Source: Escherichia coli (GTDB lineage Bacteria > Pseudomonadota > Gammaproteobacteria > Enterobacterales > Enterobacteriaceae). From it: a DNA stretch of 64,000 bases. Of this stretch, positions 19,980 through 39,120 are shown one piece after another. The notes under the pieces are model-generated. The model was not told where the DNA came from. It ran no database searches and saw only the letters and a program-made list of their open reading frames with translations. The position numbers and the translations under genes were made by a program. Location of the stretch: the NCBI RefSeq assembly GCF_002854065.1, contig NZ_CP024147.1. One strand, written 5' to 3'. Position 1 is the first letter of the stretch. Each line of letters starts with the position of its first letter.

Positions 19980-20840
<861 letters not shown>

Positions 20841-21029
20841 TCAATATTCCTTTTCAACTGACTCAAAATGGAGAAATACACTCCGCCGCCTTATGACGGG
20901 CAGTCTGACAAGGGTAAACAATAAAGCATAATTTTGCCAAATAGATCACAGATTTCTCATCTGTATCACCTTGCTATTGGCGAAAAAAAGACCCGCAGAG
21001 CGGGGCTCAGACAGATATCAATGTGCGCT

Positions 21030-21140
21030 TTGTCATGCCGGATGCGGCGTGAACGCCTTATCCGGCCTACAAAAACCTGCGAATTCAATATATTGCAGGA
21101 TACGTGTAGGCCTGATAAGCGTAGCGCATCAGGCAATTTT
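21030..21140. repeat. REP/BIME palindromic repeats in mscS-fbaA intergenic region
   Basis: gccggatgcggcgtgaacgccttatccggcctac ... gtaggcctgataagcgtagcgcatcaggc; typical REP consensus. Confidence 0.85.
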
Positions 21141-21148
21141 TCTTTTGG

Positions 21149-21176
21149 CAAAAAAAAGACCCGCAGAGCGGGCCTT
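21149..21176 (-). terminator. rho-independent terminator of fbaA
   Basis: On minus strand ggcccgctctgcgggtc followed by T8; immediately 3' of fbaA stop. Confidence 0.7.
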
Positions 21177-21198: not shown

Positions 21199-22278
21199 TT
21201 ACAGAACGTCGATCGCGTTCAGTTCCTGGAATGCTTTTTCCAGACGAGCGATCATCGAAGTCTGACCGGCACGCAGCCATACGCGCGGATCGTAGTATTT
21301 CTTGTTCGGCTGATCTTCGCCTTTCGGGTTACCCAGCTGACCCTGCAGATAAGCTTCGTTCGCTTTGTAGTAGTTCAGAACGCCTTCCCAGGTTGCCCAT
21401 TGGGTATCGGTATCGATGTTCATTTTCACTACGCCGTAGCTTACGGAGTCTTTGATTTCCTGAGCTGTAGAACCGGAACCACCGTGGAATACGAAGTTCA
21501 GGCTGTTGTGCGGCAGGTTGTGTTTCTTAGAAACATATTCCTGAGAATCACGCAGGATGGTCGGAGTCAGAACCACGTTACCCGGCTTGTAAACACCGTG
21601 TACGTTACCGAAGGACGCTGCAATGGTGAAACGCGGGCTGATTTTGCTCAGCTCGGTGTATGCGTAATCAACGTCTTCCGGCTGGGTGTACAGTGCAGAA
21701 GCGTCCATGTGGCTGTTGTCCACGCCGTCTTCTTCACCACCGGTGCAACCCAGTTCGATTTCCAGAGTCATGCCGATTTTGGACATGCGCTCCAGGTATT
21801 TAGAGCAGATTTCGATGTTCTCTTGCAGAGATTCTTCAGACAGGTCGATCATGTGAGAAGAGAACAGCGGCTTGCCGGTAGCAGCGAAGTGTTTTTCACC
21901 CGCGTCCAGCAGACCGTCGATCCACGGCAGCAGTTTCTTCGCGCAGTGGTCAGTGTGCAGGATAACCGGAACACCATAATGTTCAGCCATCTGGTGAACG
22001 TGATGCGCACCAGAGATCGCGCCCAGGATAGCAGCACCCTGCGGAACGTCAGATTTCACGCCTTTACCAGCGATAAAGGAAGCACCACCGTTGGAGAACT
22101 GAACGATAACCGGCGCTTTAACTTTAGCAGCGGTTTCCAGTACGGCGTTGATGGAGTCAGTACCGACGCAGTTTACTGCTGGCAGTGCGAAGTTGTTTTC
22201 TTTTGCTACCTGGAAAACTTTCTGTACGTCATCACCAGTGATTACGCCAGGTTTTACGAAATCAAAAATCTTAGACAT
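21199..22278 (-). CDS. fbaA: fructose-bisphosphate aldolase class II
   Basis: Track ORF 21199..22362 trimmed to MSKIFDFVKPGVITGDDVQKVFQVAKENNFALPAVNCVG... (359 aa). Confidence 0.95.
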   Translation of the reverse strand: MSKIFDFVKPGVITGDDVQKVFQVAKENNFALPAVNCVGTDSINAVLETAAKVKAPVIVQFSNGGASFIAGKGVKSDVPQGAAILGAISGAHHVHQMAEHYGVPVILHTDHCAKKLLPWIDGLLDAGEKHFAATGKPLFSSHMIDLSEESLQENIEICSKYLERMSKIGMTLEIELGCTGGEEDGVDNSHMDASALYTQPEDVDYAYTELSKISPRFTIAASFGNVHGVYKPGNVVLTPTILRDSQEYVSKKHNLPHNSLNFVFHGGSGSTAQEIKDSVSYGVVKMNIDTDTQWATWEGVLNYYKANEAYLQGQLGNPKGEDQPNKKYYDPRVWLRAGQTSMIARLEKAFQELNAIDVL

Positions 22279-22492
22279 GTCTCTTGTCCTGTATCGTCGG
22301 GCCTTATACTCGTCATACTTCAAGTTGCATGTGCTGCGTCTGCGTTCGCTCACCCCAGTCACTTACTTATGTAAGCTCCTGGGGATTCACTCTCTTGTCG
22401 CCTTCCTGCAACTCGAATTATTTAGAGTATGAAAAAATGCGTGCTCTAAAAGCGCGCTGAAACAAGGGCAGGTTTCCCTGCCCTGTGATTTT

Positions 22493-34653: not shown

Positions 34654-35562
34654 ATGAAAGCACCTGTTTCATTAACCTCATTTCGCCCACAAAAATCTCT
34701 TGCTATCGCCATCGGCGTGCTTGCCGTGGTTGTGCTGCCATTTCTCTCGTATTACACCGTTAATGAAGGTGAACGCGGCATTTTGCTGCGCTACGGAAAA
34801 ATCGTAAAAGTTGCCGAGCCGGGTCTGGGTTTTAAGATCCCGTTTATGGAAAGCGTGGAGAAAATTTCCACGCGTAATCAGGCTGTGGTCTATCAGGGAT
34901 TACAGGCCTACAGCCGCGACCAGCAACCGGCACAAATGACAGTATCAGTCAGCTTCCACATTAAACCTTCAGAAGCAGGCGCGGTTTATACCACCTACAA
35001 CACCATTGAAGCATTAAAAGATCGTCTGATTGTCCGTCAGTTGCCAACTCAACTGGAGAACGTTTTCGGCCAATATACCGCCATCAGCGCTGTACAGGAT
35101 CGTACAAAACTGGTTCAGGATCTGCAAAATGCCATGCGCAAAGCCGTTGTTGGGCCAGTGGTAATTGACGGGGTCCAGATTGAAAATATTGATTTTTCTG
35201 ACGCTTATGAAAAGTCGATTGAAGACCGAATGAAAGCAGAAGTCGCCATTGCCACGCGTAAGCAAAATCTGGAAACAGAGAAAATCCAGGCGCAAATAGC
35301 GGTAACTCAGGCCCAGGCAGAAGCAGACAGTAAACTGGCGGCAGCCAAAGCAGAAGCGGAAACTATTCGCGTAAGAGGCGCGGCAGAGGCTGAAACTATT
35401 CGTTTAAAAAGTGCGGCTGAAGCAGAAGCAATCCGCCTGCGCGGTGAAGCTCTGCGGGATAATCCCGGACTTGTAGCCCTCACCACTGCCGAACGTTGGG
35501 ACGGTAAACTGCCCGATACCATGATCCCCGGCAGCACAGTTCCGTTTATCTCTACTAAGTAA
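34654..35562 (+). CDS. SPFH/band-7 (prohibitin/stomatin-like) membrane protein with C-terminal Ala/Glu-rich repeats
   Basis: 302-aa ORF; N-terminal TM helix IAIGVLAVVVLPFL, SPFH-like core, C-terminal repeats AEAETIRVRGAAEAETIRLKSAAEAEAIRLRGEA; preceded by 330-bp AT-rich region. Confidence 0.7.
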   Translation: MKAPVSLTSFRPQKSLAIAIGVLAVVVLPFLSYYTVNEGERGILLRYGKIVKVAEPGLGFKIPFMESVEKISTRNQAVVYQGLQAYSRDQQPAQMTVSVSFHIKPSEAGAVYTTYNTIEALKDRLIVRQLPTQLENVFGQYTAISAVQDRTKLVQDLQNAMRKAVVGPVVIDGVQIENIDFSDAYEKSIEDRMKAEVAIATRKQNLETEKIQAQIAVTQAQAEADSKLAAAKAEAETIRVRGAAEAETIRLKSAAEAEAIRLRGEALRDNPGLVALTTAERWDGKLPDTMIPGSTVPFISTK

Positions 35563-35604
35563 AAAAAGGGCCGCTTTCGCGGCCCTTGAGAGTGATGGCA
35601 AAAG

Positions 35605-35725
<121 letters not shown>

Positions 35726-35781
35726 TTACCAATAATCTAAAGGGCCGCTTTCGCGGCCCTTCTCACAAAACGTCTTACTGA

Positions 35782-38820: not shown

Positions 38821-39120
38821 GCCAAACGTAGTTCAGATAAGGCATTTACGCCGCATCTGACATAAATGGCACATTCACTACCTCGTGCGCATTGCCGGAT
38901 GCGATGCTGGCGCATCTTATCCGGCCTACGGGTGCCAAACGTAGGTCAGATAAGGCGTTCACCCCGCATCTGACATGAATGGCACATTTGTTACCTTGTG
39001 CGCATTGCCGGATGCGATGCTGGCGCATCTTATCCGGCCTACGGGTGCCGAACGTAGGTCGGATAAGGCGTTCACGCTGCATCCGACATTAATGGCACGT
39101 TTTACCCGTGCGCATCGCAT
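38821..39120. repeat. BIME cluster: about 2.6 tandem copies of a ~113-bp REP-containing unit
   Basis: Unit gccaaacgtag..cagataaggc..ccgcatctgacat..gcgcattgccggatgcgatgctggcgcatcttatccggcctacgggt repeated from 38821, 38934 and 39046. Confidence 0.9.

Follow-up and report, generated by a model that had tools for sequence, protein, structure and literature searches.

A BIME-1 element of about 150 bp probably inserted at the intrinsic terminator of pgk-fbaA in an ancestor of Escherichia, and duplicated the terminator palindrome as it did so. In the window (the whole 64,000-nt stretch of Escherichia coli DNA analysed here) the element lies in the 357-nt spacer between mscS and fbaA, flanked on both sides by a copy of the fbaA terminator hairpin (Table 1). 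The order mscS, fbaA, pgk is that of E. coli, with mscS downstream of the region on the minus strand. Insertion of REP sequence with duplication of its target had been suggested in a preliminary description of this DNA, and is supported here by E. coli alleles that are shorter by 168 bp, by the single hairpin of outgroup species and by recurrence of the arrangement at other loci.

A BIME-1 between two copies of the fbaA terminator hairpin

The preliminary description had reported near-identical segments of ~28 bp bracketing the REP sequence. The segments are there, but a repeat search extends them to 37 nt, with one BIME-1 between them. The copies are identical at 33 of 37 positions (89%), with a start-to-start distance of 168 nt and a gap of 131 nt. 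Within the 64-kb window their 21-mer core, AAAAAAGACCCGCAGAGCGGG, has just these two occurrences, even with three mismatches allowed; 0.01 would be expected by chance, and two matches were obtained in none of 100 shuffles. A chance origin of the flanking repeats was rejected on these shuffles and on the mismatched-locus controls of the survey described below.

Both 37-nt copies are terminator-like on the minus strand. The copy proximal to fbaA, which the preliminary description had taken for the fbaA terminator with a minus-strand hairpin and a T8 run, is indeed of this kind: its hairpin starts 22 nt past the fbaA stop codon and has a 9-bp stem, a 3-nt loop and a U8 tract (-17.7 kcal/mol, z = -3.3). 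A GC-rich stem-loop followed by a U tract just after a stop codon is what defines a Rho-independent terminator and, from its sequence, the proximal copy still looks like a working one. In the distal copy the stem is weakened in this strain, with 5 bp and a U7 tract, and the sequence folds no better than when shuffled (z = 0.03). The distal copy reads GACCCGC...GCGGGG in this window, without a sixth base pair, which is restored in some E. coli alleles from metagenome contigs (TCCCCGC...GCGGGG). This copy evolves freely and is degenerate in E. whittamii, so one of the two copies is able to decay.

The insert is a single complete BIME-1, consisting of the left motif, a Y REP, a long linker and an inverted Z REP. 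BIME-1 has been described as a Y and a Z REP with a conserved L linker between them, often carrying an IHF site (Ton-Hoang et al. 2012). The arms of the Y REP and the inverted Z REP pair over 15 nt at 93%, and the Y REP has four more copies in the window. The linker is one position off the 21-mer TGCAAATTCAATATATTGCAG, which marks an L motif common to at least 120 metagenome loci in a scan with this 21-mer, and it matches Rfam family ES036 at 21071-21113 with 42.5 bits against a gathering score of 37.6. Its AATTCAATATATTGCAG core is a putative IHF site, following Ton-Hoang et al. 2012. The Rfam model of the sRNA family ES036 (CssrF) in effect detects the L linker of BIME-1, and the Y REP (21032-21067 of the window) is matched below threshold by the family naRNA4 (CssrE). 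A further sub-threshold Rfam match, to the Vibrio antisense RNA V_AS5, lies in the pgk-fbaA junction region (22313-22432, minus strand; 38.9 bits against a gathering score of 96; E = 3.8e-6).

The external motifs give the element defined ends. The left motif has the consensus CAGATTGTTGACAAAGTGCGCTTTGTTCAT, taken over 10 loci, and the right end the consensus GTTTTGCGTTTGTCATCAGTCTCA. When the left consensus is compared with the reverse complement of the right one, 12 of 14 positions match, and the ends of BIME-1 thus form 14-nt terminal inverted repeats, AGAYTGWTGACAAA, as expected of a transposable element; this score was equalled by 1 of 2000 shuffles. At fbaA the position of the right motif overlaps the proximal repeat copy: the first ~14 nt fit the right-end motif and the remainder is the A-run of the duplicated terminator.

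Table 1. Features of the mscS-fbaA spacer and of the tktA locus in the window
Feature	Position	Strand	Remarks
mscS coding sequence	19980-20840	minus	ORF list and RefSeq annotation of identical DNA
Direct repeat copy distal to fbaA, 37 nt	20971-21007	minus	TTGCTATTGGCGAAAAAAAGACCCGCAGAGCGGGGCT
Hairpin core within distal copy	21004-20992	minus	CCCGCTCTGCGGG, then U7 (A-run 20983-20989)
BIME-1 left external motif, 29 nt	21008-21036	plus	CAGACAGATATCAATGTGCGCTTTGTCAT
Y-type REP	21037-21070	plus	GCCGGATGCGGCGTGAACGCCTTATCCGGCCTAC; exact match to consensus
BIME-1 long (L) linker	21071-21105	plus	AATTCAATATATTGCAG core
Z-type REP, inverted orientation	21106-21135	plus	GTAGGCCTGATAAGCGTAGCGCATCAGGCA
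BIME-1 right external motif position	21136-21158	plus	23 nt here, consensus 24 nt
Direct repeat copy proximal to fbaA, 37 nt	21139-21175	minus	TTTCTTTTGGCAAAAAAAAGACCCGCAGAGCGGGCCT; fbaA intrinsic terminator
Hairpin of proximal copy	21176-21156	minus	AAGGCCCGCTCTGCGGGTCTT, then U8 (A-run 21150-21157)
fbaA coding sequence, class II fructose-bisphosphate aldolase	21199-22278	minus	stop codon 21199-21201
Distal copy of tktA palindrome	35567-35586	minus	AGGGCCGCGAAAGCGGCCCT, then T-run
Complete BIME-1 at tktA	35587-35738	minus	left motif, Y REP (35709-35676), L linker, Z REP, right motif
Palindrome copy proximal to tktA	35741-35760	minus	AGGGCCGCGAAAGCGGCCCT

The fbaA locus in E. coli and its relatives

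Searched with a 760-nt query, 5,366 of 5,426 complete E. coli genomes contained the locus, and an evenly spaced sample of 39 chromosomal matches was taken. The locus is full length in 27 of them, and K-12 MG1655 likewise has the long form; the other 12, a group that includes ST131 and NC101, lack the REP cluster and span 592 nt. All 12 are shorter by 168 bp, which is the spacing of the repeats. The two short alleles examined in sequence (ST131 and O145:H28) have one hairpin, joining the left flank of the distal copy to the right flank of the proximal copy. Strains without the REP but with both hairpins, the case that in the preliminary description would speak against insertion with duplication, did not turn up: judged by length, none of the REP-less alleles among the sampled E. 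coli chromosomes (12 of 39) could hold two.

Outside the genus, cluster members and an exact-protein look-up led to the loci of Salmonella enterica and Klebsiella pneumoniae; the matches in a search for MscS homologues were all near-identical E. coli variants. In both species fbaA is followed by a single terminator hairpin and no BIME. The Klebsiella spacer, at 190 nt, is collinear with the 189-nt spacer of the E. coli short allele and has its hairpin at the corresponding position. Since both outgroups have one terminator and no BIME, the single hairpin is, by this comparison, the ancestral state at fbaA. A scan of genome contigs for the hairpin pattern, with a free loop, gave at least six Escherichia loci, and no Salmonella or Citrobacter among the matches listed.

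E. albertii, E. whittamii and Escherichia sp. MOD1-EC7003 have the filled form too, and Escherichia sp. E1V33 carries three hairpins and two BIMEs in tandem. On the strength of the filled form in E. albertii and E. whittamii we date the insertion and duplication before E. coli, that is, they are older than the split between E. coli and E. albertii. Within E. coli, the short alleles probably arose secondarily, by precise deletion between the repeats, rather than surviving from the pre-insertion state, because short and long E. coli spacers differ at few positions, as against a divergence of ~8% in E. albertii, and because the short form occurs on two different flanking haplotypes. The filled form being genus-wide, the empty alleles of E. 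coli do not display the pre-insertion state at fbaA, and this counts against our reading of the locus. Throughout, we infer polarity by comparison.

The fbaA repeat is asymmetric over its 37 nt, and its left 11 nt resemble the right-end motif of BIME-1. Since this end of the repeat partly falls where that motif would lie, the original duplication may have comprised the hairpin only, as at the loci described below. Either the junction formed at the similarity to the right-end motif, or the repeat was later extended by gene conversion between the copies; with a repeat of this length, asymmetry and likeness to the motif, the original junction is beyond recovery.

Hairpin duplication at other BIME-1 loci

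Looking beside the remaining Y REPs of the window, we found a second locus, downstream of tktA, where a complete BIME-1 lies between two copies of the palindrome AGGGCCGCGAAAGCGGCCCT (Table 1). This palindrome differs from that of fbaA and is the terminator between the convergent tktA and prohibitin-family genes. E. coli has the long form and also, in strain ST648, a form that is 174 nt shorter with one hairpin; in ECO_2_R the locus is 174 nt longer, with three hairpins and two BIMEs.

Several further variants of the tktA region were noted. In E. coli SE15 a deletion inside the BIME-1 has taken away the last part of the linker and the first part of the Z REP, joining ATATTGCAG directly to CCTGATAAGCG, and both hairpin copies are kept. 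The gene convergent with tktA (34654-35562) is of the prohibitin family in this strain and cmtB in the BL21-type NEBExpress, where tktA has a different terminator and no BIME; the region downstream of tktA is therefore a replacement polymorphism. Among the remaining Y REPs of the window, one (58197-58230, minus strand) belongs to a third Y/Z pair at ~58100-58270 in which a short linker replaces the L linker; the left motif is conserved, and a hairpin, GGCCAGCATTTGCTGGCC, stands on the left without a counterpart on the right. Those at 39054-39087 and 61568-61601 sit in tandem REP arrays with short linkers and look like BIME-2.

A wider check for REP clusters flanked by direct repeats, which the preliminary description had proposed, found the same architecture at other BIME-1 loci. 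Metagenome contigs were picked by the exact linker 21-mer, giving at least 99 usable instances and, from these, at least 19 distinct loci that have both REPs; the figures below describe a sample of metagenome loci, not a census of whole genomes. For each locus the 85 nt on either side were aligned to each other, and 342 alignments of flanks from mismatched loci served as controls, with a maximum score of 11. Flank-to-flank repeats scored above all 342 controls at 6 of the 19 distinct loci surveyed, namely fbaA (25.5), tktA (23), yqjF-yqjG (17), katE-chbG (15), metE-ysgA (15) and gldA-yijF (12.5), and these repeats adjoin the ends of the BIME-1. A seventh locus, mog-satP, has a diverged repeat copy. 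The flanks are also rich in hairpins. One or both of the 30-nt stretches bordering the element fold at -8 kcal/mol or better at 13 of the 19 loci, compared with 3 of 19 when the windows are shifted 45 nt outward; for both sides together the figures are 6 of 19 and none (Wilcoxon p = 4e-5 for adjacent versus displaced folding). A clear duplication is seen at only about one third of the BIME-1 loci, a point against our reading; elsewhere a hairpin stands on a single side or is missing altogether, which we tentatively attribute to decay.

Empty alleles were found for five loci, fbaA, tktA, metE-ysgA, yqjF-yqjG and mog-satP, and in each case the empty allele holds exactly one hairpin. These five therefore show what is expected of a target-site duplication, direct repeats on both sides of the element and one copy in the empty site. 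At metE-ysgA, every sampled E. coli match spanning the locus, K-12 included, has one hairpin (CGGGTGGTATTACCACCCG), and a related metagenome contig has hairpin, BIME-1 and hairpin. At yqjF-yqjG there is one hairpin in the K-12-like laboratory strain TUM22760 and in strain SCU-124, the filled form in a related contig and two units in strain N96; most other sampled E. coli aligned on the yqjG side only, at the search sensitivity used. At mog-satP, the long E. coli allele exceeds the short one by the element and a single copy of GATCCCCCCGC.GGGGGGAT. A short allele of katE-chbG was considered as an empty site and rejected, as the region is divergent and has a different hairpin; it is excluded from the count. 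Tandem alleles occur at three loci: fbaA (E1V33), tktA (ECO_2_R) and yqjF-yqjG (N96).

The four loci other than fbaA serve as independent replicates, each with a different local hairpin. What is duplicated at them is the palindrome from foot to foot plus 0-3 nt, ~17-25 bp in all, with junctions within ~3 nt of the hairpin feet and the T-run of the terminator on the outer side only.

Two readings in which the hairpin was not duplicated by the insertion have to be weighed against these alleles. Had tandem terminators existed beforehand, with BIME-1 landing between them, BIME-free alleles with two hairpins would be expected; every BIME-free allele examined at the five loci has a single one, as do both fbaA outgroups, and we rejected this origin as exceedingly improbable. 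Alternatively, BIME-1 may have arrived beside one hairpin, the second copy being added later by ectopic copying or gene conversion and perhaps selected for two-sided terminators. Several BIME-1 loci do have a hairpin on one side only, and the fbaA copies appear to exchange sequence between alleles, the distal copy varying among those of E. coli. But this course of events would need a second precise event at six loci or more, always flush with the opposite end of the element. Further, no BIME allele at the five polymorphic loci combines one intact hairpin with a clean, non-repeat other side, and in E. whittamii the one-sided state is visibly a decayed second copy. We regard a later second copy as very unlikely.

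A possible mechanism and its relation to known systems

We propose that a BIME-1, with its Y REP, IHF-site linker, inverted Z REP and 14-nt terminal inverted repeats, would enter at a terminator palindrome, insertion and hairpin duplication being one event. The element would be joined in staggered fashion to both strands, one at each foot of the hairpin or of a cruciform, and subsequent gap filling would leave a copy of the palindrome on each side. At fbaA the distal hairpin, upstream of the mscS promoter region, would then be free to decay. Direct repeats around a palindromic insert would also offer a substrate for slipped or unequal exchange, resulting either in precise loss (the allele shorter by 168 bp, with one hairpin) or in tandem gain (three hairpins and two BIMEs).

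The same arrangement could in principle arise during replication and with no transposase, if a fork stalled at the hairpin, copied a donor BIME and returned upstream, so that the hairpin was copied twice. Hairpins are known to stall replication, and the right junction at fbaA lies in a stretch alike between the right-end motif (TTTTGCGTTTG) and the target (CTTGCTTTTGG), which suits microhomology. At the four other loci, however, the element is complete to its conserved ends, whereas random switching should leave ragged ones, and the junctions fall within ~3 nt of both hairpin feet with no evident microhomology. While fbaA alone would permit template switching, these precise and complete ends argue against an untargeted form of it, and we consider it unlikely.

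Tentatively, BIME-1 may be, or may once have been, a MITE-like transposon that specifically targets hairpin palindromes such as intrinsic terminators, joined at their opposite feet with repair duplicating the ~17-25 bp palindrome; we offer this as a possibility short of an even chance. MITEs with target-site duplications are likewise small, non-coding elements with terminal inverted repeats and direct target repeats, of which empty sites hold one copy. They differ in that classical MITEs duplicate a few bp, against ~17-37 bp here, coincident with a whole palindrome, and in that we identified no DDE transposase with matching ends for BIME-1.

Two other systems resemble parts of this scheme. In CRISPR adaptation, Cas1-Cas2 acts with IHF to attach a spacer at the two edges of a partly palindromic repeat of ~28 bp, one strand at each edge, so that the repeat is copied in full when the gaps are filled. 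The resulting order, repeat-insert-repeat, formally matches that at BIME-1, a likeness we use as an analogy alone: here the insert is 150 bp long, the targets are unrelated terminators and nothing points to a part played by Cas proteins. Tn10 and Tn5, for their part, undergo precise excision by slippage between the target duplications that flank their inverted repeats. The short alleles described above, shorter by 168, 174 and ~170-178 bp, have similarly lost the insert and exactly one repeat; the BIME-1 repeats are longer, however, and tandem gain alleles are found as well.

The insert shares with published BIME-1, RIP and RIB elements the Y REP, the L linker with its AATTCAATATATTGCAG core, the inverted Z REP and the external motifs, and in this window it likewise occurs as a lone unit, intergenic and downstream of a gene. 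The descriptions covered by our search do not include the duplicated local hairpin, the terminal inverted repeats or the tandem element-plus-hairpin units. BIME-1 has been described as occurring in single copies (Ton-Hoang et al. 2012). This window and most genomes have one unit; two-unit alleles occur at three loci, where the hairpin is inside the repeated unit.

Single-strand transposition of the IS200/IS605 type is the current model for the spread of REPs and REPINs. IS200/IS605 elements and TnpA-REP (RAYT) have in common with our case hairpin-forming elements, an enzyme that recognises hairpin feet and REPs as its proposed substrates, and TnpA-REP cleaves near hairpin feet (Ton-Hoang 2012). 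TnpA-REP is the obvious candidate enzyme, although its relatives make no target duplication: transposition of the IS200/IS605 type produces neither a target duplication nor terminal inverted repeats. The flanking duplications of ~17-37 bp at BIME-1 are not those of an insertion of that kind, and the footprint therefore does not fit the model as it stands. How BIMEs spread was considered unknown by Ton-Hoang 2012, and according to a 2026 preprint the in vivo mechanism is not fully established.

In the literature that followed the founding papers (Gilson 1991, Bachellier 1997), which is what our search covered, we found no description of flanking hairpin duplication at BIME-1. Preprints on terminator evolution and on the mobilome likewise contained nothing on it. 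Bachellier 1997 reportedly described the loss of whole BIME-1 elements by excision in natural isolates, so that polymorphism for the presence or absence of BIME-1 is already known; its recurrent target-site signature, the hairpin duplication, is apparently undescribed.

REPs and BIMEs are the most abundant repeats of E. coli, and their mode of insertion has been puzzling since the 1980s. The footprint provides a testable prediction for insertion, an element complete to its inverted-repeat ends together with a terminator duplicated from foot to foot, and it conflicts with the absence of duplication that is the hallmark of the enzyme family usually invoked. It also accounts for a frequent difference in length between alleles downstream of fbaA, tktA and other core genes, and shows that insertion of BIME-1 creates both a spare copy of the terminator and repeats that permit precise loss or tandem gain. 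If BIME-1 does target palindromes in a MITE-like manner, the duplicated hairpin would be a previously unrecognised target-site signature that constrains how REPs and BIMEs spread in vivo, and would argue against a simple mechanism of the IS200/IS605 type that leaves no duplication.
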